From contig CH464491.1 of the NCBI GenBank assembly GCA_000002445.1, positions 2,272,001-2,336,000 of the forward strand: 64,000 nt of DNA, read 5' to 3'. A program made the position numbers and the translations under genes. Below are positions 10,373 through 64,000 of this stretch, piece after piece. How positions within the stretch are numbered: position 1 is the stretch's first letter; each line of letters opens with the position of its first letter. This DNA is from Trypanosoma brucei. Taxonomy: Eukaryota. Under the pieces are notes generated by a model, which was not told where the DNA came from, searched no databases, and saw only the letters and a list, made by a program, of their open reading frames with translations.

Positions 10373-10406
10373 TATGTGTGTGTATGTGTGTGTGTGTGTG
10401 TGTGTT
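10373..10406. repeat. (GT)n microsatellite
   Basis: The sequence reads gtatgtgtgtgtatgtgtgtgtgtgtgtgtgtgtgt and lies in the intergenic region. Confidence 0.9.

Positions 10407-12358: not shown

Positions 12359-12363
<5 letters not shown>

Positions 12364-12393
<30 letters not shown>
12364..12393. repeat. (TA)15 microsatellite
   Basis: The sequence reads atatatatatatatatatatatatatatat and lies in the intergenic region upstream of the AAA ATPase gene. Confidence 0.95.
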
Positions 12394-12396
<3 letters not shown>

Positions 12397-12667
12397 TAAA
12401 TGGATCGGCTTTCCCGCCTGCAATACGATGTTGTTTCCGTCACATGAGGCTTTCCAACTCTAAAAAGAAAGAAATCCGTTATTTATTTATCCGTTATAAA
12501 ATTTGAGAAAGCTACGTTATTTAAGGTGCGCATGCACACTCCACCCATCTCTTTAGCGCTCGTGTCATTCAATTATATATCTCTTCTTTAATGTGTTTTT
12601 TATCTTCTTTCTTAACTTCTCAATTTTTGCTATTTACTGCTAACCCTCAAAGTGTAGAAGGAGTGAT

Positions 12668-35663: not shown

Positions 35664-36563
35664 ATGCATGGTGGCGCAAACTCTGCAGTGGCCTCTGTGC
35701 ATGTAGATCCGACTGCCCAGCTGCAATACAACAGGCAGCGGGGGACCGAAGCTTACGCGGAATGCGAATATTCTGACGGTTCTGCGGATGAGAACAATCG
35801 TTACCCCCAACGGGGGCAGCCGCCACAAACGCATGAAACAGCGGCCGTCTCCATAACGGACAACAGGCAGCAGAGCAACATGACACCACGTGCGCACGCA
35901 GGCGGGACCGGGGGCGGTGGCGGTGGCTCAACCATGCGACGCAATGTTATTAATAGGTTTGATTATGGAATCATATCACCTAGTGATGCACGCAGTCTGT
36001 TTCTAGGTGCATCCCTGCTCAACATCTTTTTCGCTATTCTTGGTACTTCTCTATCGCAACTCGACGAAGTTGGTGGTGCGTGTTTTACTTTTTGGGGTTA
36101 CAAAACGGATTGTGACTCGGTAAGTTACACTATCCGCACTCAACTTCTGCCGTGTGCACCCATTCGCGGGAGACTTCAGACTGGAGCCGCATTTTCTATC
36201 ATATCTATTTGCCTCTTGGCATCAATTATTTATCTTTATATCAGGTCTGCGTTGGCAAAGTACATGTCACAATATAATGCAGAGGGGCAAACTCCGGCAC
36301 GCAGGATGGAATCGCGTAGCGGCATCTTGCCAGCGGAAGACTCGATTGTGGCGAGTAATAAGTGGACTATTGTAGCGGTGGGTGGTGTTGTGGTATTGTG
36401 TGAGGTCATTAGTTGGGCAATGACTATAAGTGTGTACGTATCCCGTTTCTGTGAGGATGCCAGTTTGGATCGTAACAAAGTTTATGGACCTGGTTTCGCC
36501 CTTTTAATAGTGGGGACGCTGTTGTTTCTAATGGCGCTTGTAGTTTTCGCACTTAGGGCATAG
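35664..36563 (+). CDS. Amastin-like surface protein (299 aa) with a ~100-aa N-terminal extension
   Basis: Contains the amastin signature C-[ILVF]-T-F-W-G-x-K-x-D-C within DEVGGACFTFWGYKTDCDS. The signature is preceded by a hydrophobic TM segment (LFLGASLLNIFFAILG) and followed by three more predicted TM helices (AAFSIISICLLASIIYLYI; WTIVAVGGVVVLCEVISWAMTI; FALLIVGTLLFLMALVVFAL). This is the four-TM amastin topology. Confidence 0.65.
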   Translation: MHGGANSAVASVHVDPTAQLQYNRQRGTEAYAECEYSDGSADENNRYPQRGQPPQTHETAAVSITDNRQQSNMTPRAHAGGTGGGGGGSTMRRNVINRFDYGIISPSDARSLFLGASLLNIFFAILGTSLSQLDEVGGACFTFWGYKTDCDSVSYTIRTQLLPCAPIRGRLQTGAAFSIISICLLASIIYLYIRSALAKYMSQYNAEGQTPARRMESRSGILPAEDSIVASNKWTIVAVGGVVVLCEVISWAMTISVYVSRFCEDASLDRNKVYGPGFALLIVGTLLFLMALVVFALRA

Positions 36564-37827: not shown

Positions 37828-38206
37828 TTGCTATATTATTCTTTTTTTTGGTGAGCTCGGCAACCCTCAGGTGTGGCAAAATTATCCAATCTTGCCCTTT
37901 GTGGTGTGTTCTTACAAACTCAAGTACACAAGGTAGTAGTGGCACTAGGGTGCGGATGGGTTGGTTTGGCTGCGATTAGGGGGGAGGATAGCAACTGACG
38001 TTGGGCGCGACTTTTGAAACAACAACTGAGGTAATTTTCCTTTTACAAAACTAACGATAACAACAGTGACAATACGTAAACATACACTTTAGATTTCTGT
38101 TTATTAATAACTAAACATATATCACTCCACGGCGCAAGGTGAGAGTGTATAGCGAACGGGGGAAAGGGTGAAGATAAGGCACGACCCCAATCTTGGGAGA
38201 GTGCTC

Positions 38207-39577
38207 ATGGAATCAAAACACCCCGAAGTGAGGGGGAAAACTCGCGCGGAAGCAGTGTTTGAGGAAACTGTGTTGGATGAAAGGGAGGAAAAAGAACATC
38301 CACATCCAAGGGACGAAAACAGCGCAAATGTTGTGGGGGGGCAAACCTATAAGTCGACTAATTTGAGTGATGTTTCCTTAACGTTGGATGTAACGGCACT
38401 CGGAGCGGGGCCGTCAGCGCGAGATGAGGCAACGCCCCCCGAGCCCCACTCGGAGGGTTCAGAGGCGCACTCCTCGGCGGCTGCTCCCGCATCAGAACCT
38501 TATGTGCACTCTATCAGTGAGCAGAAACCGGTGAAAGAGAAGGTATATCTGAATGGCAATGATTCCCTCCTCTCTGTTGATGTTGGGCGAAACAGCATTC
38601 CCCGTTCTTCCTCGCAGCATTCGGAATGCGTCTCCGCAGAAAAGGAAAAAGTTAATGTGGCAGAGGAAACGGAACAGCACGAGCCAGTTAATGGCAGCAG
38701 AGATAATTGTGCGGAGGAGAGGCGAGAGGAAGTAAGGGCGATATATGCCAAACTCCCCCTGTATCGATTTCCATGTGATTCAAACCAGTCACAGGAGTTG
38801 TCCCAAACGTTTGTACCATCACCAGCGGAAGCAACTACCTCCGCAGGATGTTGGGAAATGGGAGCATGTGCTACAACTGCGAGGCCCGCAGTAGCGGCGG
38901 GCAAACAACAGTGTGCGTATGTGAAGGGGCAACAGCTTCGAGCCACCAGTGATAGCGGACTTCCTCACTCTCAAAGCTCGGATGGAACCACCAGTGTCTG
39001 TACTCGCGCCCCTTCCGACCGTGCTACACTTCCTCAATGTCTTCACAATGCCTTAGTAATTTGTTGGAATACGGAGAGCCGTTGGCTTGTTGTAACATTC
39101 TGCACGTTCTTGGCTTTTCTGTTGACTCTTGTCGCTCACCCACTTTCGTTAATGGATGTTGTAGGTGGCGGCTGCTACACTTTTTGGGGCTACAAAAATG
39201 ACTGTGATAAGAGTACATACACTTACCGCACAGGTCTTCTTAAGTGTGTTGGCTTAAGGCGGGTGCTCAGTGCTGGGGTTGTATTCAACATATTAGCTAT
39301 AATTTTGCTCGCGGCGGCGTTGGGGTGCTGCATTTTGTTCTTGAAGAGAGATGTGTTCCACAAGTGGAATCTCGTGGTGTTTGTTTTGTTATGCTTAACG
39401 GCTTTAGTGCAATTAGTTTCATGGATGTTGGTTGTTACCATGTTTTTACTTCGCTTCTGCGAGGACACAAAACAACCAAGAAGAACAGCTTATGGTGTTG
39501 CGTTTGGTATGAACGTCACCTCCTGGATACTCGTCTTCGTTAGTTTAGTTGTCATGAAGGTATTTCCAAAGGGTTGA
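38207..39577 (+). CDS. Amastin-like protein (456 aa from first ATG) with a ~300-aa S/E/A-rich N-terminal extension
   Basis: Amastin signature DVVGGGCYTFWGYKNDCDKS preceded by a TM segment (LVVTFCTFLAFLLTLVAHPL), then three further hydrophobic helices (VFNILAIILLAAALGCCILFL; LVVFVLLCLTALVQLVSWMLVV; WILVFVSLVVMKVF). The ORF-track start 38168 is a GTG and the first ATG is at 38207. Whether the long low-complexity N-terminal region is translated is uncertain. Confidence 0.6.
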   Translation: MESKHPEVRGKTRAEAVFEETVLDEREEKEHPHPRDENSANVVGGQTYKSTNLSDVSLTLDVTALGAGPSARDEATPPEPHSEGSEAHSSAAAPASEPYVHSISEQKPVKEKVYLNGNDSLLSVDVGRNSIPRSSSQHSECVSAEKEKVNVAEETEQHEPVNGSRDNCAEERREEVRAIYAKLPLYRFPCDSNQSQELSQTFVPSPAEATTSAGCWEMGACATTARPAVAAGKQQCAYVKGQQLRATSDSGLPHSQSSDGTTSVCTRAPSDRATLPQCLHNALVICWNTESRWLVVTFCTFLAFLLTLVAHPLSLMDVVGGGCYTFWGYKNDCDKSTYTYRTGLLKCVGLRRVLSAGVVFNILAIILLAAALGCCILFLKRDVFHKWNLVVFVLLCLTALVQLVSWMLVVTMFLLRFCEDTKQPRRTAYGVAFGMNVTSWILVFVSLVVMKVFPKG

Positions 39578-46814: not shown

Positions 46815-47163
46815 CAAAAGCATAAGGAGGTCCACTACAATTATACTGTTGTTCCCAGATATACGGGTGTGCGCCTAAAGGGACACGTGACGTTCAAATT
46901 GGATATCCCTCCCATTGTTGACCGTATCTCACATTATTGGATATGTTGTAATCACTGACGGCTTGCTGTGAACTGCCACAGCTGTACACATGCACACACA
47001 TGTGATTCGGTTTTTCTTCTCCCAATATCCTTCCTTTCATATAATATAGGCAACCACACAATATTGGCACAACACCTGCTATCAAACTACCCTAACCCAA
47101 GTGTCTGTTTGTTTCTTTACGTCACTGGGAGGGTTTTAACAAGAACTAACATTGAGTCTGACT

Positions 47164-48881
47164 ATGTGTGGGGGAGAAGAGAATGGTGGATTGGATCAGG
47201 CACATGTGTCCTACAGTGGCAGTGCGAGTGAGCAAAACATTGCGGAAATGATTGTAGACCCATCAGGTTCCCGTCAGCCCACAGCATTCCAACTCACACT
47301 CGATTGCAATAAGGCAGGAATGGGAAATGTGGATAAGGAACGTGTGGAAGCTATTATACGTAATGTAAGGGAAGGCTCACCTTTTTTATGAATGAGCAGC
47401 GTTTGGCTGAGGGTCGAGAGAAGCAACTGCAAGAGCTGAAGCGGAAATCATCTCTCTTCACTCAGTTGTTGGGTGGTGAACGAAACGCTGCGCAGCGGAA
47501 ACAGTGGGAGCTGAAGGTTTCCAAAATAGAACAGGAGCTTGAGGCTACGCGTCGACTGGGAACTTATATCCATTTAGACATGGACATGTTTTATGCTGCT
47601 GTTGAAATCAAGAAGCATCCGGAGTACGCCGCCATTCCGCTTGCCATAGGCACAATAACGAGGTTGATAACAACAAATTATGTTGCGCGTGGACGTGGTA
47701 TTCGTCAAGGTATGCCAGGTTTCCTTGCTCTAAAAATCTGCCCGAATTTGCTCATTCTGCCTCCTGATTTCGATGCTTACAATGAGGAATCCAATACTGT
47801 GCGCCGTATTGTTGCTGAATACGACCCTAATTATATCAGCTTTGGTTTGGATGACTTTACTCTCGAAGTAAGTGCCTACATAGAGCGTTTTGAGGGAACC
47901 AAAACAGCCGAAGATGTGGCTTCTGAACTGCGTGTGCGTGTATTTGGTGAAACAAAGTTGACAGCAAGTGCTGGTATTGGACCCACTGCAGCACTTGCCA
48001 AGATTGCCAGTAATATTAATAAGCCGAATGGACAACATGATCTTAATCTTCACACCCGAGGGGATGTGATGACATACGTCAGGGATTTGGGTCTACGTTC
48101 TGTGCCTGGTGTTGGGAAGGTTACGGAAGCTCTGTTGAAGGGACTGGGTATCACCACTCTCTCAGATATTTACAATAGGCGTGTTGAACTTTGTTACATT
48201 TTGCACAATAATTTATTTCGCTTTTTGCTTGGAGCTTCCATTGGCATTATGCAATGGCCCGATGCAGCAACGGCAGCCAATACCGAGAATTGTGAGGGGG
48301 CTACTGGAGAGCAACGGAAGGCAATCAGTAGCGAGCGATCCATCACTACTCCACGAACCAAAGAAGGTATGCAGGAAATGCTTGATACCGTATTCAATGG
48401 TGCCTATGAAGAAATGCGGAAGAGTGAGCTAATGTGTAGACGCATTTCGTTAAGAATTAGGTGGGCCTCCTATCGTTATCAACAATACACAAAAAGTTTG
48501 ATACAATATTCAGATGACTCTGCAACCCTTCGCCGCGCAGTGGATGGTTTACTGTTACCGCATGCTGCAAAGTATTCAGAGATTTCACTGTTGGGGGTAC
48601 GTTTTCTTGACCTTATCTCTGCAAAAGACTTTCATATGAAAAGAAAGGGTGGTAACCAACTGTCTATTTCACAATTTATTCGCCCCAAGAAGCCGGGTGA
48701 GGTAACAGCAACCACCGGTATAAAAAGGGAGAGAACTACTGAACCGAAACAGGTTGTTGGAGTGAATCTATCATCAGATGACGAGGATGAGAATGATAGT
48801 GTTGGCTTGGCATCTAGCTCCACTATACTCGTTTCAACTGACAAAGGTACTGTTGAGAGGGAAGTTACCATAATTGAGTGA
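47164..48881 (+). pseudogene. POLK: DNA polymerase kappa-like copy 1 with a -1 frameshift (pseudogene, or a sequencing error in a T-run)
   Basis: The N-terminal ORF (track 47152..47391) ends at a TGA (47389-47391) within cttttttatgaatgag. The paralogous copies read ...ccttttt(g/a)(a/t)t(g/t)aatga(g/a)... in frame, and copy 1 is 1 nt shorter at this point. The downstream ORF 47388..48881 encodes the full catalytic core (LDMDMFYAAVE, SFGLDDFTLEVS). Confidence 0.7.
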
Positions 48882-49596
48882 AATGAGGACATCAGTCAAT
48901 AGAAATTCCCACATTGCCCAATGGCATTCATATACAAATCACCTATACACAAGTACCCATAAACAAAACACATTATACACATGTATTGTTATACAGCTAT
49001 CATATGTTTTCATTTTTTGAAGTTATACTTTATATGGTTTATTACTTACATTGTTTTTTTCTTAAGCATGCTTGTGCTCATGTACAACCAGTGGAGCAAC
49101 TGGCTAATAACTCCTTCATCTTTGTGCGGACACCTTGGTGTATCCTATACTTTCTTTGAGGCCTTCTAATCCAGGTACTTTTTACACACTGTGACGCTAA
49201 TAAGTGTAGTTCTTTCTTTTGATTAATGTCTACTGCGTGCAGTGATGCGAAAAAGTCTGTACTTTATTTGTATGTTTATCTTCGGGTTTGATTTGTTTGG
49301 TTGCTGATGGCAGTGGAAGGCCTCTGCAATTATGTTTGTGTTTTTGTTTCTTTGTGTTGCTGTTTTTCTATATTTTTGGAGTTTGTTTTTTTTCTTCCTG
49401 TTTTTTTGCACTTCTTTTCTTTGCTTTCCTCTTGCAACATATTTTTTTATGTAATTGTATTTTTTTTGTGTGTGTAATGGTGGCGGATGTTGTTTTTGTT
49501 TTAGTAGTTGAAGTTTTTGTTTGTTGTTGGATTGAGAGCGACAACGGTAGTTTGCTGATGGTTTCGTTTATTTACAGCTGCGTCTCTAGTCGTCTG

Positions 49597-50181
49597 ATGT
49601 TTGCTAGTGTGAAGAGGGCTGTTGGGCAATATTCATGTTTTCATGTGATTTGTTCCCCGCGCTTCCACAGTAACTATGTTGTGGGGGTCAACAAGGCGCC
49701 TAGTTGGATCGCGTCCCCGACAGAAAGGCGACGAAAGTTTGGTGAAGAGTGCCTTGCCGAAGGTAAAGAGCGGGATGGCGACATGGATGTAGAGCTTGTT
49801 CCCGTGGACGTGAAAAAGCTTGCTTTGCCCCTGCACCTCACGGACTCGATCCCGCAGGATATCGTCGATAATATCGTTGCGAGAGATAGAACACTTGTTT
49901 TCGCGCCAAACATGAAGATACTAGACCTGCACAGGCGGTTGTCCCGGATGAAGTATCGGATAAGCGTCCAGCCGCTTGGGAAGGTGCTGCACTTCCGATT
50001 CTTTCGGCTGTGTAAATTGTCCAGCGGTATGCCCGGAGATGTTACAGTGGAAACCTTCCGCAGCATCCAGCAGAAACTCTCCGAGTACACAAGATTTTTG
50101 GTGATGGATGAACGTTGGCCACTGGAGTTGTCATTAGAAATTACCCCCATTATTGAGCATCAACGGAAAGCAATGCTTTGA
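49597..50181 (+). CDS. Hypothetical ORF (195 aa from ATG 49597; ORF-track 49288..50181) on a non-array insert between polymerase copies 1 and 2
   Basis: The array spacer sequence is interrupted at 49335, immediately after gcaattatg. A T/G-rich UTR-like tract (49335-49596) follows, then a complex-composition ORF ending at a TGA at 50179-50181, 5 nt before the 100-N gap. No domain recognised. The upstream part of the track ORF (49288-49596) is low-complexity and probably untranslated. Confidence 0.4.
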   Translation: MFASVKRAVGQYSCFHVICSPRFHSNYVVGVNKAPSWIASPTERRRKFGEECLAEGKERDGDMDVELVPVDVKKLALPLHLTDSIPQDIVDNIVARDRTLVFAPNMKILDLHRRLSRMKYRISVQPLGKVLHFRFFRLCKLSSGMPGDVTVETFRSIQQKLSEYTRFLVMDERWPLELSLEITPIIEHQRKAML

Positions 50182-50186
50182 TGCCA

Positions 50187-50286
50187 NNNNNNNNNNNNNN
50201 NNNNNNNNNNNNNNNNNNNNNNNNNNNNNNNNNNNNNNNNNNNNNNNNNNNNNNNNNNNNNNNNNNNNNNNNNNNNNNNNNNNNNN
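50187..50286. other. Assembly gap (100 N)
   Basis: A run of exactly 100 n characters. The sequence resumes inside the array spacer (acatgtattgttatacacc...). Confidence 1.
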
Positions 50287-50991: not shown

Positions 50992-52704
50992 ATGTGTGGG
51001 GGAGAAGAGAATGGTGGATTGGATCAGGCACATGTGTCCTACAGTGGCAGTGCGAGTGAGCAAAACATTGCGGAAATGATTGTAGACCCATCAGCTTCCC
51101 GTCAGCCCACAGCATTCCAACTCACACTCGATTGCAATAAGGCAGGAATGGGAAATGTGGATAAGGAGCGTGTCGCTGCAGTGATACATGAGATGTCTGC
51201 GGGATCAGGGTACCTTTGCAATCAGCAGCGTTTATCAAAAAGTCGAGAGAAGCAACTGCAAGAACTCAAGCGGAAATCATCTCTCTTCACTCAGTTGTTG
51301 GGTGGTGAACGAAACGCTGCGCGGCGGACGCAGTGGGAGGTGAAGGTTTCCAAAATAGAACAGGAGCTTGAGGCTACGCGTCGACTGGGAACTTATATCC
51401 ATTTAGACATGGACATGTTTTATGCTGCTGTTGAAATCAAGAAGCATCCGGAGTACGCCAACGTTCCGCTTGCAGTTGGAACTAAAACAATGCTAACAAC
51501 CGCAAATTATGTTGCTAGAGGTTGTGGTGTCCGTCCTGGTATGCCAGGTTATATCGGATTGAAGATTTGCCCGAATTTGCTCATTCTGCCTCCTGATTTC
51601 GATACTTACAATGAGGAATCCAATACTGTGCGCCGTATTGTTGCTGAATACGACCCTAATTACATCAGCTTTGGTTTGGATGAACTGACCCTTGAGGTAA
51701 GTGCCTACATAGAGCGTTTTGAGGGAACCAAAACAGCCGAAGATGTGGCTTCTGAACTGCGTGTGCGTGTATTTGGTGAAACAAAGTTGACAGCAAGTGC
51801 TGGTATTGGACCCACTGCAGCACTTGCCAAGATTGCCAGTAATATTAATAAGCCGAATGGACAACATGATCTTAATCTTCACACCCGAGGGGATGTGATG
51901 ACATACGTCAGGGATTTGGGTCTACGTTCTGTGCCTGGTATTGGGAAGGCTATGGAAGCTCTGTTGAAGGGACTGGGTATCACCACTCTCTCAGATATTT
52001 ACAATAGGCGTGTTGAACTTTGTTATATCTTTACCGAAAAAACATATCGCTTTTTGCTTGGAGCTTCCATTGGCATTATGCAATGGCCCGATGCGTGTAA
52101 TATACCGGGTGGCTCTGTCGATGATGGGACAGGTGTGGGAAGGAAGTCAGTTGGTAGTGAACGTACATTCAAAATATTGCAAAGCAAAGAGGAATTACAG
52201 GAAATTGTTGATTTTATTTTTAATTCTTCGTATGATGAACTAAAGAAACATGAGCTGATGTGTAGACAGGTTTCGTTAAGAATAAGGTGGGCAACCTATC
52301 GATCCCGGCAGTATACTATGAATTTAGCCCAACATTCAGATGACTCTGCAACCCTTCGCCGCGCAGTGGATGGTTTACTGTTACCGCATGCTGCAAAGTA
52401 CTCAGATATGTCGTTACTGGGGATGCGTCTGTTAGACCTTATCTTTGCAAAAGACTTTCATATGAAAAGAAAGGGTGGTAACCAACTGTCTATTTCACAA
52501 TTTATTCGCCCCAAGAAGCCGGGTGAGGTAACAGCAACCACCGGTATAAAAAGGGAGAGGACTACTGAACCGAAACAGGTTGTGGAAATAATAATATCAT
52601 CAGATGACGAGGATGAGAATGATAGTGTTGGCTTGGCATCTAGCTCCACTATACTCGTTTCAACTGGCAAAGGTACTGTTGAGAGGGAAGTTACCATAAT
52701 TTAG
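50992..52704 (+). CDS. POLK: DNA polymerase kappa-like (Y-family/DinB) copy 2, variant A little-finger cassette
   Basis: Y-family motifs are present: motif I LDMDMFYAAVE, motif III SFGLDELTLEVSAY, and HhH/thumb SVPGIGKAMEALLKGLGITTLSDI. Copy-specific cassettes are ANVPLAVGTKTMLTTANYVARGCGVRPGMPGYIGLKI and CNIPGGSVDDGTGVGRKSVGSERTFKILQSKEELQEIVDF... The ORF-track start 50980 is a TTG; the first ATG is at 50992. Confidence 0.9.
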   Translation: MCGGEENGGLDQAHVSYSGSASEQNIAEMIVDPSASRQPTAFQLTLDCNKAGMGNVDKERVAAVIHEMSAGSGYLCNQQRLSKSREKQLQELKRKSSLFTQLLGGERNAARRTQWEVKVSKIEQELEATRRLGTYIHLDMDMFYAAVEIKKHPEYANVPLAVGTKTMLTTANYVARGCGVRPGMPGYIGLKICPNLLILPPDFDTYNEESNTVRRIVAEYDPNYISFGLDELTLEVSAYIERFEGTKTAEDVASELRVRVFGETKLTASAGIGPTAALAKIASNINKPNGQHDLNLHTRGDVMTYVRDLGLRSVPGIGKAMEALLKGLGITTLSDIYNRRVELCYIFTEKTYRFLLGASIGIMQWPDACNIPGGSVDDGTGVGRKSVGSERTFKILQSKEELQEIVDFIFNSSYDELKKHELMCRQVSLRIRWATYRSRQYTMNLAQHSDDSATLRRAVDGLLLPHAAKYSDMSLLGMRLLDLIFAKDFHMKRKGGNQLSISQFIRPKKPGEVTATTGIKRERTTEPKQVVEIIISSDDEDENDSVGLASSSTILVSTGKGTVEREVTII

Positions 52705-53509
52705 TGAAGTGAGGACATCAGTCAATGGAAACGCTCACATTGCCCAATGGCATTCATATACAAATCACCTATACACAAGTACCCATAAACAAAACACATT
52801 ATACACATGTATTGTTATACAGCTATCATATGTTTTCATTTTTTGAAGTTATACTTTATATGGTTTATTACTTACATTGTTTTTTTCTTAAGCATGCTTG
52901 TGCTCATGTACAACCAGTGGAGCAACTGGCTAATAACTCCTTCATCTTTGTGCGGACACCTTGGTGTATCCTATACTTTCTTTGAGGCCTTCTAATCCAG
53001 GTACTTTTTACACACTGTGACGCTAATAAGTGTAGTTCTTTCTTTTGATTAATGTCTACTGCGTGCAGTGATGTGAAAAAGTCTGTACTTTATTTGTATG
53101 TTTATCTTCGGGTTTGATTTGTTTGGTTGCTGATGACAGCGGAAGGCCTCTGCAATTATGAAAACTCATAAGGAGGTCCACTATAATTATACTGTTGTTC
53201 CCAGATATACGGGTGTGCGCCTAAAGGGACACGTGACGTTCAAATTGGATATCCCTCCCATTGTTGACCGTATCTCACATTATTGGATATGTTGTAATCA
53301 CTGACGGCTTGCTGTGAACTGCCACAGCTGTACACATGCACACACATGTGATTCGGTTTTTCTTCTCCCAATATCCTTCCTTTCATATAATATAGGCAAC
53401 CACACAATATTGGCACAACACCTGCTATCAAACTACCCTAACCCAAGTGTCTGTTTGTTTCTTTACGTCATTGGGAGGGTTTTAACAAGAACTAACATTG
53501 AGTCTGACT

Positions 53510-55228
53510 ATGTGTGGGGGAGAAGAGAATGGTGGATTGGATCAGGCACATGTGTCCTACAGTGGCAGTGCGAGTGAGCAAAACATTGCGGAAATGATTG
53601 TAGACCCATCAGCTTCCCGTCAGCCCACAGCATTCCAACTCACACTCGATTGCAATAAGGCAGGAATGGGAAATGTGGATAAGGAACGTGTGGAAGCTAT
53701 TATACGTGGTGCCGGGGAAGGCACACCTTTTTTATTAAATGAACAACGTTTGGTTGAGGGTCGAGAGAAGCAACTGCGGGAACTCAAACGGAAATCATCT
53801 CTCTTCACTCGGTTGTTGGGTGGTGAACGAAACGCTGCGCAGCGGACGCAATGGGAGGTGAAGGTTTCCAAAATAGAACAGGAGCTTGAGGCTACGCGTC
53901 GACTGGGAACTTATATCCATTTAGACATGGACATGTTTTATGCTGCTGTTGAAATCAAGAAGCATCCGGAGTACGCCACCATTCCGCTTGCCATAGGCAC
54001 CATGACGAGGCTACAAACAGCAAATTACATTGCGCGTGGACGTGGTATTCGTCAAGGTATGCCAGGTTTCCTTGCTCTAAAAATCTGCCCGAATTTGCTC
54101 ATTCTGCCTCCTGATGATGATTCTTACAATGAGGAATCCAATACTGTGCGCCGTATTGTTGCTGAATACGACCCTAATTACATAGTTGTTGGTTTGGATG
54201 AACTAGCCCTTGAGGTAAGTGCCTACATAGAGCGTTTTGAGGGAACCAAAACAGCCGAAGATGTGGCTTCTGAACTGCGTGTGCGTGTATTTGGTGAAAC
54301 AAAGTTGACAGCAAGTGCTGGTATTGGACCCACTGCAGCACTTGCCAAGATTGCCAGTAATATTAATAAGCCGAATGGACAACATGATCTTAATCTTCAT
54401 ACCCGAGAGGATGTGATGACATACGTCAGGGATTTGGGTCTACGTTCTGTGCCTGGTGTTGGGAAGGTTACGGAAGCTCTGTTGAAGGGACTGGGTATCA
54501 CCACTCTCTCAGATATTTACAATAGGCGTGTTGAACTTTGTTACATTTTGCACAATAATTTATTTCGCTTTTTGCTTGGAGCTTCCATTGGCATTATGCA
54601 ATGGCCCGATGCAGCAACGGCAGCCAATACCGAGAATTGTGAGGGGGCTACTGGAGAGCAACGGAAGGCAATCAGTAGCGAGCGATCCATCACTACTCCA
54701 CGAACCAAAGAAGGTATGCAGGAAATGGTTGATACCGTATTCAATGGTGCCTATGAAGAAATGCGGAAGAGTGAGATAATGTGTAGACGGATATCCCTCA
54801 CAATTAGATGGGCGTCTTATCGTTATCAACAATACACAAAAAGTTTGATACAACATTCAGATGACTCTGCAACCCTTCGCCGCGCAGTAGACGAGCTCAT
54901 GTTACCGCACGCTGCAAAGTATTCAGAGATGTGTTTGTTGGGGGTACGTCTCTCGGACCTTATCTCTGCAAAAGACTTTCATATGAAAAGAAAGGGTGGT
55001 AACCAACTGTCTATTTCACAATTTATTCGCCCCAAGAAGCCGGGTGAGGTAACAGCAACCACCGGTATAAAAAGGGAGAGGACTACTGAACCGAAACAGG
55101 TTGTGGAAATAATAATATCATCAGATGACGAGGATGAGAATGATAGTGTTGGCTTGGCATCTAGCTCCACTATACTCGTTTCAACTGACAAAGGTACTGT
55201 TGAGAGGGAAGTTACCATAATTGAGTGA
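53510..55228 (+). CDS. POLK: DNA polymerase kappa-like copy 3, variant B cassette set
   Basis: Shares the same conserved blocks as the other copies. Motif III reads VVGLDELALEVS. It carries a unique PPDDDSYNEES block. The thumb/little-finger linker is CEGATGEQRKAISSERSITTPRTKEGMQEMVDTVF, shared with copies 1 and 6. Confidence 0.9.
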   Translation: MCGGEENGGLDQAHVSYSGSASEQNIAEMIVDPSASRQPTAFQLTLDCNKAGMGNVDKERVEAIIRGAGEGTPFLLNEQRLVEGREKQLRELKRKSSLFTRLLGGERNAAQRTQWEVKVSKIEQELEATRRLGTYIHLDMDMFYAAVEIKKHPEYATIPLAIGTMTRLQTANYIARGRGIRQGMPGFLALKICPNLLILPPDDDSYNEESNTVRRIVAEYDPNYIVVGLDELALEVSAYIERFEGTKTAEDVASELRVRVFGETKLTASAGIGPTAALAKIASNINKPNGQHDLNLHTREDVMTYVRDLGLRSVPGVGKVTEALLKGLGITTLSDIYNRRVELCYILHNNLFRFLLGASIGIMQWPDAATAANTENCEGATGEQRKAISSERSITTPRTKEGMQEMVDTVFNGAYEEMRKSEIMCRRISLTIRWASYRYQQYTKSLIQHSDDSATLRRAVDELMLPHAAKYSEMCLLGVRLSDLISAKDFHMKRKGGNQLSISQFIRPKKPGEVTATTGIKRERTTEPKQVVEIIISSDDEDENDSVGLASSSTILVSTDKGTVEREVTIIE

Positions 55229-56030
55229 AATGAGGACATCAGTCAATAGAAATTCCCACATTGCCCAATGGTATTCATATACAAATCACCTATACACAAG
55301 TACCCATAAACAAAACACATTATACACATGTATTGTTATACACCTATCATATGTTTTCATTTTTTGAAGTTATACTTTATATGGTTTATTACTTACATTG
55401 TTTTTTTCTTAAGCATGCTTGTGCTCATGTACAACCAGTGGAGCAACTGGCTAATAACTCCTTCATCTTTGTGCGGACACCTTGGTGTATCCTATACTTT
55501 CTTTGAGGCCTTCTAATCCAGGTACTTTTTACACACTGTGACGCTAATAAGTGTAGTTCTTTCTTTTGATTAATGTCTACTGCGTGCAGTGATGCGAAAA
55601 AGTCTGTACTTTATTTGTATGTTTATCTTCGGGTTTGATTTGTTTGGTTGCTGATGACAGCGGAAGGCCTCTGCAATTATGAAAACTCATAAGGAGGTCC
55701 ACTATAATTATACTGTTGTTCCCAGATATACGGGTGTGCGCCTAAAGGGACACGTGACGTTCAAATTGGATATCCCTCCCATTGTTGACCGTATCTCACA
55801 TTATTGGATATGTTGTAATCACTGACGGCTTGCTGTGAACTGCCACAGCTGTACACATGCACACACATGTGATTCGGTTTTTCTTCTCCCAATATCCTTC
55901 CTTTCATATAATATAGGCAACCACACAATATTGGCACAACACCTGCTATCAAACTACCCTAACCCAAGTGTCTGTTTGTTTCTTTACGTCACTGGGAGGG
56001 TTTTAACAAGAACTAACATTGAGTCTGACT

Positions 56031-57746
56031 ATGTGTGGGGGAGAAGAGAATGGTGGATTGGATCAGGCACATGTGTCCTACAGTGGCAGTGCGAGTGAGC
56101 AAAACATTGCGGAAATGATTGTAGACCCATCAGGTTCCCGTCAGCCCACAGCATTCCAACTCACACTCGATTGCAATAAGGCAGGAATGGGAAATGTGGA
56201 TAAGGAACGTGTGGAAGCTATTATACGTAATGTATCTGAGGGTTCTTCCTTTTTGATGAATGAGCAGCGGAAGGCTGAGGGTCGAGAGAAGCAACTGCAA
56301 GAGCTCAAGCGGAAATCATCTCTCTTCACTCAGTTGTTGGGTGGTGAACGAAACGCTGCGCGGCGGAAACAGTGGGAGCTGAAGGTTTCCAAAATAGAAC
56401 AGGAGCTTGAGGCTACGCGTCGACTGGGAACTTATATCCATTTAGACATGGACATGTTTTATGCTGCTGTTGAAATCAAGAAGCATCCGGAGTACGCCAA
56501 CGTTCCGCTTGCAGTTGGGAGTGTGTCAATGTTGTCTACCGCAAATTATGTTGCACGTGAATGTGGTATTCGCTCCGGTATGCCAGGTTATATCGGATTG
56601 AAGGTCTGCCCGAATTTGCTCATTCTGCCTCCTGATTTCGATGCTTACAATGAAGAATCCAATACTGTGCGCCGTATTGTTGATGAATACGACCCTAATT
56701 TTACCTCTCTCGGTTTGGATGACTTGACCCTCGAGGTAAGTGCCTACATAGAGCGTTTTGAGGGAACCAAAACAGCCGAAGATGTGGCTTCTGAACTGCG
56801 TGTGCGTGTATTTGGTGAAACAAAGTTGACAGCAAGTGCTGGTATTGGACCCACTGCAGCACTTGCCAAGATTGCCAGTAATATTAATAAGCCGAATGGA
56901 CAACATGATCTTAATCTTCATACCCGAGGGGATGTGATGACATACGTCAGGGATTTGGGTCTACGTTCTGTGCCTGGTGTTGGGAAGGTTACGGAAGCTC
57001 TGTTGAAGGGACTGGGTATCACCACTCTCTCAGATATTTACAATAGGCGTGTTGAACTTTGTTACATTTTGCACAATAATTTATTTCGCTTTTTGCTTGG
57101 AGCTTCCATTGGCATTATGCAATGGCCCGATGCAGCAACGGCAGCCAATACCGAGAATTGTGAGGGGGCTACTGGAGGGCAACGGAAGGCAATCAGTAGC
57201 GAGCGATCTTTTTATGTGTTACATAGCAAAGAGCAGTTGCATGAAATGATTTACAGTATTTTTGAAGAGGCCTATGAAGAAATGCGACAGAATGAGATGT
57301 TGTGTCGTCAGATCTCCTTGCTTGTGCGTTGGTCGTCTTATCGTTATCAACAATACACAAAAAGTTTGATACAATATTCAGATGACTCTGCAACCCTTCG
57401 CCGCGCAGTGGATGGTTTACTGTTACCGCACGCTGCAAAGTATTCAGAGATGTGTTTGTTGGGGGTACGTTTTCTTGACCTTATCTCTGCAAAAGACTTT
57501 CATATGAAAAGAAAGGGTGGTAACCAACTGTCTATTTCACAATTTATTCGCCCCAAGAAGCCGGGTGAGGTAACAGCAACCACCGGTATAAAAAGGGAGA
57601 GGACTACTGAACCGAAACAGGTTGTGGAAATAATAATATCATCAGACGACGAGGATGAGAATGATAGTGTTGGCTTGGCATCTAGCTCCACTATACTCGT
57701 TTCAACTGACAAAGGTACTGTTGAGAGGGAAGTTACCATAATTTAG
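56031..57746 (+). CDS. POLK: DNA polymerase kappa-like copy 4, variant C linker
   Basis: Motif III reads SLGLDDLTLEVS, a D-D version. The palm cassette is ANVPLAVGSVSMLSTANYVARECGIRSGMPGYIGLKV. The linker ...SERSFYVLHSKEQLHEMIYSIFEEAYEEMRQNEMLCRQISLLVRW is unique to this copy. Confidence 0.9.
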   Translation: MCGGEENGGLDQAHVSYSGSASEQNIAEMIVDPSGSRQPTAFQLTLDCNKAGMGNVDKERVEAIIRNVSEGSSFLMNEQRKAEGREKQLQELKRKSSLFTQLLGGERNAARRKQWELKVSKIEQELEATRRLGTYIHLDMDMFYAAVEIKKHPEYANVPLAVGSVSMLSTANYVARECGIRSGMPGYIGLKVCPNLLILPPDFDAYNEESNTVRRIVDEYDPNFTSLGLDDLTLEVSAYIERFEGTKTAEDVASELRVRVFGETKLTASAGIGPTAALAKIASNINKPNGQHDLNLHTRGDVMTYVRDLGLRSVPGVGKVTEALLKGLGITTLSDIYNRRVELCYILHNNLFRFLLGASIGIMQWPDAATAANTENCEGATGGQRKAISSERSFYVLHSKEQLHEMIYSIFEEAYEEMRQNEMLCRQISLLVRWSSYRYQQYTKSLIQYSDDSATLRRAVDGLLLPHAAKYSEMCLLGVRFLDLISAKDFHMKRKGGNQLSISQFIRPKKPGEVTATTGIKRERTTEPKQVVEIIISSDDEDENDSVGLASSSTILVSTDKGTVEREVTII

Positions 57747-58551
57747 TGAAATGAGGACATCAGTCAATAGAAATTCCCACATTGCCCAATGGCATTCATA
57801 TACAAATCACCTATACACAAGTACCCATAAACAAAACACATTATACACATGTATTGTTATACAGCTATCATATGTTTTCATTTTTTGAAGTTATACTTTA
57901 TATGGTTTATTACTTACATTGTTTTTTTCTTAAGCATGCTTGTGCTCATGTACAACCAGTGGAGCAACTGGCTAATAACTCCTTCATCTTTGTGCGGACA
58001 CCTTGGTGTATCCTATACTTTCTTTGAGGCCTTCTAATCCAGGTACTTTTTACACACTGTGACGCTAATAAGTGTAGTTCTTTCTTTTGATTAATGTCTA
58101 CTGCGTGCGGTGATGCGAAAAAGTCTGTACTTTATTTGTATGTTTATCTTCGGGTTTGATTTGTTTGGTTGCTGATGACAGTGGAAGGTCTCTGCAATTA
58201 TGAAAACTCATAAGGAGGTCCACTATAATTATACTGTTGTTCCCAGATATACGGGTGTGCGCCTAAAGGGACAGGTGACGTTCAAATTGGATATCCCTCC
58301 CATTGTTGACCGTATCTCACATTATTGGATATGTTGTAATCACTGACGGCTTGCTGTGAACTGCCACAGCTGTACACATGCACACACATGTGATTCGGTT
58401 TTTCTTCTCCCAATATCCTTCCTTTCATATAATATAGGCAACCACACAATATTGGCACAACACCTGCTATCAAACTACCCTAACCCAAGTGTCTGTTTGT
58501 TTCTTTACGTCACTGGGAGGGTTTTAACAAGAACTAACATTGAGTCTGACT

Positions 58552-60267
58552 ATGTGTGGGGGAGAAGAGAATGGTGGATTGGATCAGGCACATGTGTCCT
58601 ACAGTGGCAGTGCGAGTGAGCAAAACATTGCGGAAATGATTGTAGGCCCATCAGGTTCCCGTCAGCCCACAGCATTCCAACTCACACTCGATTGCAATAA
58701 GGCAGGAATGGGAAATGTGGATAAGGAACGTGTGGAAGCTATTATACGTAATGTATCTGAGGGTTCTTCCTTTTTGATGAATGAGCAGCGGAAGGCTGAG
58801 GGTCGAGAGAAGCAACTGCAAGAACTCAAGCGGAAATCATCTCTCTTCACTCAGTTGTTGGGTGGTGAACGAAACGCTGCGCAGCGGAAACAGTGGGAGC
58901 TGAAGGTTTCCAAAATAGAACAGGAGCTTGAGGCTACGCGTCGACTGGGAACTTATATCCATTTAGACATGGACATGTTTTATGCTGCTGTTGAAATCAA
59001 GAAGCATCCGGAGTACGCCGCCATTCCACTTGCAGTTGGGAGTGTGTCAATGTTGTCTACCGCAAATTATGTTGCACGTGAATGTGGTATTCGCTCCGGT
59101 ATGCCAGGTTATATCGGATTGAAGGTCTGCCCGAATTTGCTCATTCTGCCTCCTGATTTCGATGCTTACAATGAGGAATCCAATACTGTGCGCCGTATTG
59201 TTGCTGAATACGACCCTAATTTTACCTCTCTCGGTTTGGATGAACTGACCCTTGAGGTAAGTGCCTACATAGAGCGCTTTGAGGGAACCAAAACAGCCGA
59301 AGATGTGGCTTCTGAACTGCGTGTGCGTGTATTTGGTGAAACAAAGTTGACAGCAAGTGCTGGTATTGGACCCACTGCAGCACTTGCCAAGATTGCCAGT
59401 AATATTAATAAGCCGAATGGACAACATGATCTTAATCTTCATACCCGAGAGGATGTGATGACATACGTCAGGGATTTGGGTCTACGTTCTGTGCCTGGTA
59501 TTGGGAAGGTTACGGAAGCTCTGTTGAAGGGACTGGGTATCACCACTCTCTCAGATATTTACAATAGGCGTGTTGAACTTTGTTATATTTTTACCGAAAA
59601 AACATATTGTTTTTTGCTTGGAGCTTCCATTGGCATTATGCAATGGCCCGATATGTGCAGCATACTTGGTGCCTCCATCGATGATGGGACAGGTGTGGGA
59701 AGGAAGTCAGTTGGGTGTGAACGTACATTCAAAACATTTCAAAACAAAGAAGAATTGCAGGAAATGGTTGATTTCTTAGTCGACTACTCATATGATGAAC
59801 TAAAGAAACATGAGCTGATGTGTAGACAGGTTTCGTTAAAAATTCGATGGAATTCCTACCGTCATCAACAATACACAAAGAATTTGACTCAATATTCAGA
59901 TGACTCTGCAACCCTTCGCCGCGCAGTAGACGAGCTCATGTTACCGCACGCTGCAAAGTATTCAGAGATGCGGCTGCTGGGGGTACGTTTTCTTGACCTT
60001 ATCTTTGCAAAAGACTTTCATATGAAAAAAAAGGGTGGTAACCAACTGTCTATTTCACAATTTATTCGCCCCAAGAAGCCGGGTGAGGTAACAGCAACCA
60101 CCGGTATAAAAAGGGAGAGGACTACTGAACCGAAACAGGTTGTGGAAATAATAATATCATCAGATGACGAGGATGAGAATGATAGTGTTGGCTTGGCATC
60201 TAGCTCCACTGTACTCGTTTCAACTGACAAAGGTACTGTTGAGAGGGAAGTTACCATAATTGAGTGA
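58552..60267 (+). CDS. POLK: DNA polymerase kappa-like copy 5, variant A-prime linker
   Basis: Motif III reads SLGLDELTLEVS. The palm cassette is as in copy 4. The linker MCSILGASIDDGTGVGRKSVGCERTFKTFQNKEELQEMVDFLVDYSYDELKKHELMCRQVSLKIRW is related to copy 2 but distinct. Confidence 0.9.
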   Translation: MCGGEENGGLDQAHVSYSGSASEQNIAEMIVGPSGSRQPTAFQLTLDCNKAGMGNVDKERVEAIIRNVSEGSSFLMNEQRKAEGREKQLQELKRKSSLFTQLLGGERNAAQRKQWELKVSKIEQELEATRRLGTYIHLDMDMFYAAVEIKKHPEYAAIPLAVGSVSMLSTANYVARECGIRSGMPGYIGLKVCPNLLILPPDFDAYNEESNTVRRIVAEYDPNFTSLGLDELTLEVSAYIERFEGTKTAEDVASELRVRVFGETKLTASAGIGPTAALAKIASNINKPNGQHDLNLHTREDVMTYVRDLGLRSVPGIGKVTEALLKGLGITTLSDIYNRRVELCYIFTEKTYCFLLGASIGIMQWPDMCSILGASIDDGTGVGRKSVGCERTFKTFQNKEELQEMVDFLVDYSYDELKKHELMCRQVSLKIRWNSYRHQQYTKNLTQYSDDSATLRRAVDELMLPHAAKYSEMRLLGVRFLDLIFAKDFHMKKKGGNQLSISQFIRPKKPGEVTATTGIKRERTTEPKQVVEIIISSDDEDENDSVGLASSSTVLVSTDKGTVEREVTIIE

Positions 60268-60969
60268 AATGAGGACATCAGTCAATAGAAATTCCCTTTA
60301 TTCTAGCGGCATATTTATAGATATTTATTTCGGTTTTCCCATTCGGCAGAGAGAAATACAACATGTATTAAGTATTGGGGAGCAACTGGCTAATAACTCC
60401 TTCATCTTTGTGCGGACACCTTGGTGTATCCTATACTTTCTTTGAGGCCTTCTAATCCAGGTACTTTTTACACACTGTGACGCTAATAAGTGTAGTTCTT
60501 TCTTTTGATTAATGTCTACTGCGTGCAGTGATGCGAAAAAGTGTGTACTTTATTTGTATGTTTATCTTCGGGTTTGATTTGTTTGGTTGCTGATGACAGC
60601 GGAAGGCCTCTGCAATTATGAAAACTCATAAGGAGGTCCACTATAATTATACTGTTGTTCCCAGATATACGGGTGTGCGCCTAAAGGGACAGGTGACGTT
60701 CAAATTGGATATCCCTCCCATTGTTGACCGTATCTCACATTATTGGATATGTTGTAATCACTGACGGCTTGCTGTGAACTGCCACAGCTGTACACATGCA
60801 CACACATGTGATTCGGTTTTTCTTCTCCCAATATCCTTCCTTTCATATAATATAGGCAACCACACAATATTGGCACAACACCTGCTATCAAACTACCCTA
60901 ACCCAAGTGTCTGTTTGTTTCTTTACGTCATTGGGAGGGTTTTAACAAGAACTAACATTGAGTCTGACT

Positions 60970-62685
60970 ATGTGTGGGGGAGAAGAGAATGGTGGATTGG
61001 ATCAGGCACATGTGTCCTACAGTGGCAGTGCGAGTGAGCAAAACATTGCGGAAATGATTGTAGACCCATCAGGTTCCCGTCAGCCCACAGCATTCCAACT
61101 CACACTCGATTGCAATAAGGCAGGAATGGGAAATGTGGATAAGGAACGTGTGGAAGCTATTATACGTAATGTATCTGAGGGTTCTTCCTTTTTGATGAAT
61201 GAGCAGCGGAAAGCTGAGGGTCGAGAGAAGCAACTGCAAGAGCTGAAGCGGAAATCATCTCTCTTCACTCGGTTGTTGGGTGGTGAACGAAACGCTGCGC
61301 AGCGGAAACAGTGGGAGCTGAAGGTTTCCAAAATAGAACAGGAGCTTGAGGCTACGCGTCGACTGGGAACTTATATCCATTTAGACATGGACATGTTTTA
61401 TGCTGCTGTTGAAATCAAGAAGCATCCGGAGTACGCCGCCATTCCGCTTGCCATAGGCACAATAACGAGGTTGATAACAACAAATTATGTTGCGCGTGGA
61501 CGTGGTATTCGTCAAGGTATGCCAGGTTTCCTTGCTCTAAAAATCTGCCCGAATTTGCTCATTCTGCCTCCTGATTTCGATGCTTACAACGAAGAATCCA
61601 ATACTGTGCGCCGTATTGTTGCTGAATACGACCCTAATTATATCAGCTTTGGTTTGGATGACTTTACTCTCGAAGTAAGTGCCTACATAGAGCGTTTTGA
61701 GGGAACCAAAACAGCCGAAGATGTGGCTTCTGAACTGCGTGTGCGTGTATTTGGTGAAACAAAGCTGACAGCAAGTGCTGGTATTGGACCCACTGCAGCA
61801 CTTGCCAAGATTGCCAGTAATATTAATAAGCCGAATGGACAACATGATCTTAATCTTCATACCCGAGAGGATGTGATGACATACGTCAGGGATTTGGGTC
61901 TACGTTCTGTGCCTGGTGTTGGGAAGGTTACGGAAGCTCTGTTGAAGGGACTGGGTATCACCACTCTCTCAGATATTTACAATAGGCGTGTTGAACTTTG
62001 TTACATTTTGCACAATAATTTATTTCGCTTTTTGCTTGGAGCTTCCATTGGCATTATGCAATGGCCCGATGCAGCAACGGCAGCCAATACCGAGAATTGT
62101 GAGGGGGCTACTGGAGAGCAACGGAAGGCAATCAGTAGCGAGCGATCCATCACTACTCCACGAACCAAAGAAGGTATGCAGGAAATGCTTGATACCGTAT
62201 TCAATGGTGCCTATGAAGAAATGCGGAAGAGTGAGATAATGTGTAGACGGATATCCCTCACAATTAGATGGGCCTCTTATCGTTATCAACAATACACAAA
62301 AAGTTTGATACAACATTCAGATGACTCTGCAACCCTTCGCCGCGCAGTGGATGGTTTACTGTTACCGCACGCTGCAAAGTATTCAGAGATGTGTTTGTTG
62401 GGGGTACGTCTCTCGGACCTTATCTCTGCAAAAGACTTTCATATGAAAAGAAAGGGTGGTAACCAACTGTCTATTTCACAATTTATTCGCCCCAAGAAGC
62501 CGGGTGAGGTAACAGCAACCACCGGTATAAAAAGGGAGAGGACTACTGAACCGAAACAGGTTGTGGAAATAATAATATCATCAGACGACGAGGATGAGAA
62601 TGATAGTGTTGGCTTGGCATCTAGCTCCACTATACTCGTTTCAACTGGCAAAGGTACTGTTGAGAGGGAAGTTACCATAATTTAG
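60970..62685 (+). CDS. POLK: DNA polymerase kappa-like copy 6, variant B
   Basis: Nearly identical to copy 1's downstream ORF (AAIPLAIGTITRLITTNYVARGRGIRQGMPGFLALKI; SFGLDDFTLEVS) but intact, with no frameshift. It ends VTII followed by a TAG. Confidence 0.9.
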   Translation: MCGGEENGGLDQAHVSYSGSASEQNIAEMIVDPSGSRQPTAFQLTLDCNKAGMGNVDKERVEAIIRNVSEGSSFLMNEQRKAEGREKQLQELKRKSSLFTRLLGGERNAAQRKQWELKVSKIEQELEATRRLGTYIHLDMDMFYAAVEIKKHPEYAAIPLAIGTITRLITTNYVARGRGIRQGMPGFLALKICPNLLILPPDFDAYNEESNTVRRIVAEYDPNYISFGLDDFTLEVSAYIERFEGTKTAEDVASELRVRVFGETKLTASAGIGPTAALAKIASNINKPNGQHDLNLHTREDVMTYVRDLGLRSVPGVGKVTEALLKGLGITTLSDIYNRRVELCYILHNNLFRFLLGASIGIMQWPDAATAANTENCEGATGEQRKAISSERSITTPRTKEGMQEMLDTVFNGAYEEMRKSEIMCRRISLTIRWASYRYQQYTKSLIQHSDDSATLRRAVDGLLLPHAAKYSEMCLLGVRLSDLISAKDFHMKRKGGNQLSISQFIRPKKPGEVTATTGIKRERTTEPKQVVEIIISSDDEDENDSVGLASSSTILVSTGKGTVEREVTII

Positions 62686-63490: not shown

Positions 63491-63977
63491 ATGTGTGGGG
63501 GAGAAGAGAATGGTGGATTGGATCAGGCACATGTGTCCTACAGTGGCAGTGCGAGTGAGCAAAACATTGCGGAAATGATTGTAGACCCATCAGCTTCCCG
63601 TCAGCCCACAGCATTCCAACTCACACTCGATTGCAATAAGGCAGGAATGGGAAATGTGGATAAGGAACGTGTGGAAGCTATTATACGTAATGTATCTGAG
63701 GGTTCTTCCTTTTTGATGAATGAGCAGCGGAAAGCTGAGGGTCGAGAGAAGCAACTGCAAGAGCTGAAGCGGAAATCATCTCTCTTCACTCAGTTGTTGG
63801 ATGGTGAACGAAACGCTGCGCAGCGGAAACAGTGGGAGCTGAAGGTTTCCAAAATAGAACAGGAGCTTGAGGCTACGCGTCGACTGNGAACTTATATCCA
63901 TTTAGACATGGACATGTTTTATGCTGCTGTTGANATCAAGAAGCATCCGGAGTACGCCGCCATTCCGCTTGCCATAG
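63491..63977 (+). CDS. POLK: DNA polymerase kappa-like copy 7, 5' partial (truncated by Ns and the window end)
   Basis: Same N-terminal sequence as copies 4-6 (MCGGEENGG...NVSEGSSFLMNEQRKAEGREKQ...LDMDMFYAAV). Two single-n ambiguities occur at 63887 and 63934, then a run of N from 63978. Confidence 0.8.
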
Positions 63978-64000
63978 NNNNNNNNNNNNNNNNNNNNNNN

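Follow-up and report, generated by a model that had tools for sequence, protein, structure and literature searches.

The window analysed here, a stretch of 64,000 nucleotides, derives from chromosome 11 of Trypanosoma brucei brucei TREU927 and contains the start of a tandem array of DNA polymerase kappa genes, which belong to the DinB branch of the Y-family. Six Pol kappa copies and a partial seventh fall within it, the six being arranged head-to-tail as open reading frames of 497-576 amino acids between 47.4 and 62.7 kb, with the seventh entering Ns at the window end according to the open reading frame listing. All lie on the forward strand: copy 1 at 47388..48881 (EAN79810, 497 amino acids as annotated), copy 2 at 50992..52704 (EAN79812), copy 3 at 53510..55228 (EAN79813), copy 4 at 56031..57746 (EAN79814), copy 5 at 58552..60267 (EAN79815), copy 6 at 60970..62685 (EAN79816), and the partial copy 7 at 63491..63977, in which motif I occurs at approximately 63902 and Ns cut in before motif III. 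Copies 2-6, when translated from the annotated ATG, reproduce their deposited proteins exactly; the open reading frame of copy 1 has the sequence of EAN79810 (cluster member P0133), and GenBank names all of the array proteins 'DNA polymerase kappa, putative' from T. b. brucei TREU927. The array has a period of approximately 2.52 kb and its spacers are nearly identical between copies; repeat units were delimited by the positions of motifs, a 2.5 kb period being beyond the 500-base limit of Tandem Repeats Finder. The genes upstream are those of an ordinary chromosome core: a katanin-like AAA ATPase, an NADPH-P450 reductase-like gene, a HAD hydrolase, two amastins and a CCCH zinc-finger protein.

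Copy 1 and its surroundings carry signs of difficult assembly. A 1-bp deletion after position 47387 interrupts the reading frame that starts at the ATG at 47164. The upstream flank is the unique flank of the first array copy, and the C-terminal marker (VVGVNLSS) and downstream flank are of the terminal-copy type, as found in the last copy of T. b. gambiense DAL972 and of T. equiperdum. On the 3' side there is the truncated 5' part of a divergent Y-family-like gene (49558..50186, forward strand), which stops at the assembly gap, and then a scaffold gap of 100 Ns (50187..50286) separating copy 1 and this flanking-gene fragment from all other copies. Copy 1 may be an assembly chimera or a collapse of both array ends. 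Positions 46821-50186 of the window are 97.5% identical to positions 9658-13022 of a contig from DAL972 (L001). The divergent gene comes after the last array copy in both T. b. gambiense and T. equiperdum; no D-x-D motif I was seen in its sequence, and its sole Pfam match is to positions 66-148 of the IMS profile. Several copies of the T. equiperdum array are also broken, and a GLDDCTLEAS variant of motif III from that genome consequently needs to be treated with caution.

All six copies match the catalytic core Pfam IMS (PF00817) across the full 148-position profile, with E-values of 1e-40 to 1e-42, and IMS_C (little finger) and IMS_HHH (thumb motif) exceed their gathering cut-offs in every one. 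The closest solved relative is human Pol kappa (phmmer E 1e-72). An N-clasp is present, residues 46-140 aligning to human residues 17-111, and motif I (LDMDMFYAAVE) aligns to human IDMDAFYAAVE with the positions of D107, D109 and the steric-gate Tyr (Y112) conserved. Motif I had been described as invariant in the initial annotation and is indeed identical in 6/6 copies, the partial seventh being the same except for one N. An AlphaFold model of copy 6 has a mean pLDDT of 83, rising above 95 in the core, and places long helices at residues 58-128 before the palm (pLDDT >85); its best structural matches are ternary complexes of human Pol kappa with DNA that include the N-clasp (Foldseek E 6e-40, TM 0.84 on target).

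Y-family polymerases are recognised by three catalytic residues. One of these, the Glu of motif III, is the residue that varies between the array copies. Motif III, on the forward strand throughout, reads GLDELTLEVS in copy 2 (51673-51702) and copy 5 (59233-59262), where the variable codon is GAA at 51682-51684 and 59242-59244, respectively, and GLDELALEVS in copy 3 (54191-54220; GAA at 54200-54202). In the other three copies the codon is GAC: the motif is GLDDFTLEVS in copy 1 (47844-47873; codon 47853-47855) and copy 6 (61651-61680; codon 61660-61662), and GLDDLTLEVS in copy 4 (56712-56741; codon 56721-56723). These sites occur in all six copies at the positions previously given for them, and the division into D-E copies (2, 3 and 5) and D-D copies (1, 4 and 6) is upheld, with the correction that copy 3 does not read GLDELTLEVS. 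The two forms had also been said to alternate along the array, but the actual order is D-D, D-E, D-E, D-D, D-E, D-D, which is not a strict alternation.

The assignment of the variable position to the catalytic Glu, which had been proposed from the motif, is confirmed by an ungapped alignment to E199 of human Pol kappa, directly after D198. Residues 148-247 of copy 2 align to human residues 112-211 with no gap and approximately 50% identity (HMMER), such that LD-E of the array falls on human L197-D198-E199, while the motif I aspartates fall on D107 and D109. The catalytic residues of the human enzyme are D107, D198 and E199 (PMC2686167). It had been allowed that the catalytic Glu might instead be the one within LEVS; that residue aligns to the non-catalytic final position of LDEAYLN/D, which is Asn in the human protein and Asp in most other Pol kappa, and this excludes it. 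The Asp-Glu dyad of motif III (human D198-E199) is kept in copies 2, 3 and 5 and is absent from copies 1, 4 and 6, where it is Asp-Asp. The first Asp is invariant and a carboxylate is kept at the second position in the D-D copies, which also retain the other active-site residues that were checked, namely the motif I D-x-D, the steric-gate Tyr and the Tyr, Arg and Lys that contact the dNTP. D-D and D-E copies are 83-93% identical, and the former are Pol kappa paralogues by descent. The array variants can be told apart by tryptic peptides, IVAEYDPNYISFGLDDFTLEVSAYIER and IVAEYDPNYISFGLDELTLEVSAYIER.

The rarity of this substitution was assessed in 350 Pol kappa-family proteins, all scored by alignment to one profile. 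They were collected by querying 90% clusters with copy 6, by a 50%-representative search covering 1.84 billion proteins and by a further search with a second trypanosomatid protein (P0151), and the T. brucei cluster members were added. D-E is present in 337/350 and D-D in 10/350. Eight of these ten D-D proteins belong to T. brucei, T. b. gambiense or T. equiperdum: copies 1, 4 and 6 together with EAN79819 and EAN79820 in TREU927, CBH17847 and CBH17849/51 in DAL972, and RHW67582 in T. equiperdum. The remaining two come from a trypanosomatid contig and from the amphioxus Branchiostoma floridae (a 'Pol kappa-like' protein), and natural exceptions to the motif III Glu are thus very rare, at approximately 0.6% of the non-T. 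brucei sequences sampled. The trypanosomatid contig (L004), which is GC-rich and comes from a public sequencing run, carries a tandem pair of Pol kappa genes, of which the first is D-E and the second, encoding P0151, is D-D. P0151 prompted the idea that D-D might mark an ancient, conserved class of trypanosomatid paralogues, which was rejected; the closest relatives of P0151, in Leptomonas, Novymonas, Leishmania, Phytomonas and Angomonas, are all D-E, and its Asp is therefore an isolated case. Since T. congolense, T. vivax, T. cruzi, T. theileri and T. grayi are likewise D-E, the Asp of the array is derived within the T. brucei lineage, where it now accounts for 3/7 copies of the complete array in DAL972 and 5/9 in TREU927.

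Divergence between the copies is distributed very unevenly along the gene. Near-identity (dS 0.01-0.02) extends over the spacers, both protein termini and the central palm and thumb (residues 236-345), and variation is concentrated in four patches: the N-clasp (61-90), the fingers (156-200), the motif III region (201-235), and the linker and little finger (346-450). In these patches dS is 0.3-0.9 and dN/dS is 0.25-0.34, with a value of 0.27 for the motif III patch; they are old, constrained sequence types that are neither decaying nor hypermutated. Copy 5 is the most outgroup-like in every variable patch, combining VGSVSMLST fingers, FTSL-GLDELT, an FTEKTY thumb and an ERTF little finger. Derived patches alter several conserved positions close to the active site, of which the motif III Glu is one; others include the position of human M135, where Met is replaced by Arg, and ERTF in the little finger, replaced by ERSI or ERSF. 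Human M135 contacts the template base. D-D is confined to copies with derived thumb and little-finger types, and D-E occurs on all types; a strict co-occurrence of D-D with any fingers type was looked for and none was found. Other non-synonymous changes neighbour the site in the D-D lineage, namely Leu to Phe and, in T. equiperdum, also Phe to Cys and Val to Ala. Copy 4 has an intermediate D-D-Leu haplotype on an ancestral-like fingers and FTSL background, and from the fingers patch that it shares with copy 5 to the constant palm these two copies differ by two residues only (A/D and D/E).

The locus corresponds to array 112 (Tb11.01.0080) of earlier published analyses, which give 10 copies for TREU927 and 7 for DAL972, a PHI test at p<0.001 and at least 10 GARD breakpoints (Jackson 2007, PMC1855330; Jackson 2010, PMC2854126). 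Our estimates for the array (dS 0.199, dN 0.081) are close to the values of 0.213 and 0.089 tabulated for it in Jackson 2007 (PMC1855330), which we take to be synonymous and non-synonymous divergence. The cassette exchange suggested by the initial annotation is correct, but was already known given that mosaicism of this array has been published (PMC1855330, PMC2854126). The excerpted accounts of 2007 and 2010 treat the array statistically and make no mention there of a variant catalytic residue, nor did our literature search return a mention of the D-D form.

The history of the D allele was examined in a codon alignment of 15 copies from three genomes, which included the arrays of DAL972 (contigs L001 and L003, 7 copies) and T. 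equiperdum (L002); TREU927 copies 8-10 were compared at the protein level only. Throughout the 15 copies, the D/E site is in perfect linkage with position +1 (C/T) and with a synonymous Leu position at +9 (T/C). Of the D haplotypes, GAC TTT ACT CTC GAA is the commonest; 6/15 bases distinguish it from the E haplotype (GAA CTG ACC CTT GAG), and the haplotype of copy 4 (GAC TTG ACC CTC GAG) is intermediate between them. Upstream, the D haplotype is preceded by three different backgrounds (YISF, YIVV and FTSL), each of which is also found with Glu, and the D allele occurs with several fingers types and two little-finger types. Only 12 bp separate the D/E site from the nearest four-gamete-incompatible site, which lies upstream, and this puts a breakpoint in the conserved GGTTTGGATGA core. 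Among copies 2-6, no fewer than 28 recombination events are required, and a PHI-type permutation test is significant (p<0.001). Perfect linkage to the markers, combined with three upstream backgrounds, indicates a single origin followed by spread through short-tract gene conversion, and the constancy of the +1 and +9 markers on those backgrounds bears out the earlier proposal of cassette exchange: the D allele was not distributed by recurrent mutation.

The same distribution might be reached if E had mutated to D repeatedly and independently, or if the D-D readings were errors of assembly or sequencing, rather than a shared allele. GAA becomes GAC by one transversion, copy 1 both adjoins an assembly gap and contains a frameshift, and the T. 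equiperdum assembly includes broken copies. However, every GAC codon, in three independent assemblies, comes with the T of the +1 marker and the C of the +9 marker, and the markers at +3, +6 and +12 are common to most of them as well, while copies 4 and 6 are clean, full-length open reading frames that match deposited proteins exactly. The recurrence of the GAC haplotype in the independent assemblies of DAL972 (3/7 copies) and T. equiperdum means that D-D is not a sequencing artefact, and we regard this alternative as effectively refuted.

In our reading, one A-to-C change (GAA to GAC), on the lineage that led to the T. brucei group, placed Asp in the position of the motif III Glu in one member of the array. 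The D allele then gained the linked changes CTG to TTG and CTT to CTC, and later the Leu to Phe replacement together with two synonymous changes. Short-tract conversion, with a breakpoint inside the GGTTTGGATGA core, moved this allele onto different neighbouring patches, and the outcome is the present composition of approximately half D-D and half D-E copies in each of three subspecies genomes. The haplotypes themselves show the steps of origin and conversion; for the functional step, we infer that the D-D copies encode weakened or altered polymerases rather than dead ones, which we consider somewhat better than an even prospect. Such enzymes would bind the catalytic metal more weakly or differently, with lower efficiency and possibly another preference between Mg and Mn, and the D-E copies of the same array would provide a redundancy that tolerates them. 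On balance, we favour this account as a whole, that is, one derived replacement of Glu by Asp, spread by conversion, in enzymes that are weakened or altered.

When Asp replaces Glu the carboxylate is kept on a side chain that is one methylene shorter, and in Y-family polymerases the motif III Glu is less important than the two Asp residues; for these reasons, a D-D protein is probably still a polymerase. In the human enzyme, D107 and D198 bind metal B and E199 does not (PMC2686167). The E156A mutant of yeast Pol eta, as PMC5264235 summarises Kondratick 2001, indicates that this Glu is not essential for activity, although efficiency was strongly reduced without it. A search of the literature for Y-family polymerases with an engineered Glu-to-Asp change gave unrelated proteins only. 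The array is of consequence in vivo, where POLK has a part in tolerance of alkylation damage: T. brucei becomes more sensitive to MMS when POLK is knocked down (PMC5542689). With their intact reading frames and a low dN/dS in the variable patches, these copies do not resemble decaying pseudogenes; nevertheless, intact frames and low dN/dS do not prove that the D-D copies are under selection, because conversion refreshes copies from their neighbours.

A less benign reading of the same facts is that the D-D copies are dead or nearly dead passengers, in which a slightly deleterious replacement, having arisen in a redundant array of 7-10 copies, drifted to a frequency of about one half by unbiased conversion, function being carried by the D-E copies and chiefly by the ancestral-like copies 2 and 5. 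The near-universality of Glu (337/350 family proteins) argues that Asp is not its equivalent, and D-D copies could therefore be close to inactive. Both D-D cases outside the T. brucei group come from settings in which additional Pol kappa genes exist or are suggested, D-D is never found on the most ancestral-like thumb and little-finger type (FTEKTY/ERTF), and the further non-synonymous changes described above adjoin the site in the D-D lineage. Yet Asp keeps the metal-binding carboxylate when even Ala, in the summary of yeast Pol eta cited above (PMC5264235), leaves the enzyme partly active; all the other active-site residues checked are kept; and D-D stands at no less than 3/7 copies in each complete array, with a patch dN/dS of 0.27. 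We consider it rather unlikely, if a serious contender, that the D-D copies are inert.

At the other extreme, D-D might be an adaptive specialisation, selected for a changed metal preference, fidelity or lesion spectrum, with both types held under balancing selection. The variable patches fall in parts that contact the substrate: the N-clasp, the little finger and the fingers, where the human M135 position is among those covered; they are very old (dS 0.6-0.9) yet constrained (dN/dS approximately 0.3) when the remainder of the gene is homogenised (dS 0.01-0.02); each of the three genomes has both D-D and D-E; and, according to PMC5542689, it is not known why POLK has expanded in T. brucei. Against this, there are too few substitutions at the D/E site for a test of selection, a dN/dS below 1 denotes constraint and not positive selection, and the three genomes split too recently to show long-term maintenance, such that a polymorphism shared between relatives this close says little about it. 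Balancing selection of this kind seems distinctly improbable to us. The broader proposition that the array is maintained as a recombining repertoire of translesion polymerases, with D-D selected for altered use of metal (for example, Mn2+) or for fidelity, strikes us as unlikely, if marginally less so. Were it true, the triad of a naturally occurring, working Y-family polymerase would be Asp-Asp-Asp, and different lesion spectra would result from the shuffling of old patches of the N-clasp, the fingers, the active site and the little finger.

The Pol kappa genes and their mosaicism are already known, and D-D is a minor, conservative variant, and so the stakes are modest. Even so, T. brucei supplies matched natural pairs, such as copies 4 and 5, with which the contribution of the Glu can be tested directly. 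Depending on whether the D-D half of the array is weakened, specialised or dead, the expansion of POLK would read as added dosage, as diversification or as decay.

The structural features of the array have their closest counterpart in human POLK (2OH2, 5W2A, 6CST), which has the same domains including the N-clasp, the same motif I, the steric-gate Tyr and the Tyr, Arg and Lys that contact the dNTP. The human enzyme differs in having E199 within SLDEAYLNIT, where the array has GLD(D/E)(L/F)TLEVS with Asp in copies 1, 4 and 6; in having M135, where derived array copies have Arg; and in its long C-terminal UBZ/PIP region, which is lacking from the array proteins. Pol kappa of T. cruzi is an orthologue with a similar motif context, GLDELTMEV. 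It is reported to be mitochondrial and to bypass 8-oxoG (Rajao et al. 2009, as cited in PMC5542689 and PMC12578213), and this implies that the D-E form in trypanosomes is an active polymerase. T. cruzi has two gene types, both D-E, in contrast to the 7-10 mosaic copies of T. brucei, about half of which are D-D. In this respect the Pol kappa array belongs with the mosaic tandem arrays of T. brucei that evolve in concert (Jackson 2007, 2010).

Comparisons across the wider Y-family are less direct. The E156A mutant of yeast Pol eta affects the same motif III Glu, according to the secondary summary already cited, but it is an engineered Ala on another branch of the family, whereas the Asp of the array is natural. 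ImuB and other inactive Y-family paralogues (PMC11791113) are similar to the D-D copies in having altered catalytic acids and in persisting beside active polymerases. ImuB, however, lacks all of the acidic residues and has a scaffold role, while the D-D copies keep three carboxylates together with every other catalytic feature. A closer analogue of ImuB than the D-D copies themselves is the divergent gene flanking the array.

Across copies 2-6 of the DNA polymerase kappa array, which were compared over window positions 50992-62685, variation is limited to patches in the N-clasp, fingers and little finger (protein residues 61-90, 156-200 and 346-450). Within these patches dS is 0.6-0.9 and dN/dS approximately 0.3; the rest of the gene and the spacers are near-identical, with dS of 0.01-0.02. 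The variable segments appear to be old patches that have been kept from homogenisation. Derived fingers patches carry an arginine at the position of M135 in human Pol kappa, a residue that contacts the template base. The spacer between copies 5 and 6 lacks about 100 bp relative to the others, giving a period of 2418 bp as opposed to approximately 2520 bp elsewhere, and contains a short divergent stretch 3' of copy 5 (60297-60377).

Copy 1 and its flanks up to the end of the assembly gap (46821-50286) combine an upstream flank of the first-copy type with a 3' end of the last-copy type, which bears the VVGVNLSS marker. This is followed by the initial ~630 bp of a gene that in T. b. gambiense DAL972 comes after the array, and directly beyond this fragment lies a scaffold gap of 100 Ns. 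The region looks like two array ends that were collapsed or chimerically joined in the TREU927 assembly. In addition, a 1-bp deletion after position 47387 leaves copy 1 with an annotated protein of only 497 aa. At the other end, the partial copy 7 includes single Ns at 63887 and 63934 and a terminal run of Ns (63978-64000), which in this window cuts the copy off before motif III. Two amastin-family surface glycoprotein genes (35664-36563 and 38168-39577) lie a few kb 5' of the array, the second with a long N-terminal extension.

The gene immediately 3' of the array, present in the window as a fragment (49558-50186), is divergent and encodes 554 aa in DAL972 (contig L001, 12394-14058). It matches the IMS profile in its second half only (positions 66-148, E 2.5e-5), and no D-x-D motif I was seen in its translated sequence. 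The gene may encode a Y-family paralogue that is catalytically inactive.

The D-D form of motif III, with aspartate in place of the catalytic glutamate, also occurs outside T. brucei. A trypanosomatid contig of 63% GC (L004, Logan run SRR18067485) contains a tandem pair of Pol kappa genes (486-4775), with a D-E motif in the first (GLDELTMDVT) and a D-D motif in the second (GLDDMTLDIT); here glutamate was replaced by aspartate independently, in a duplicated gene. A third gene, similar to the divergent gene downstream of the T. brucei array, follows this pair. The 'Pol kappa-like' protein of Branchiostoma floridae (XP_035667769) is likewise D-D (SLDDAYMDLT).
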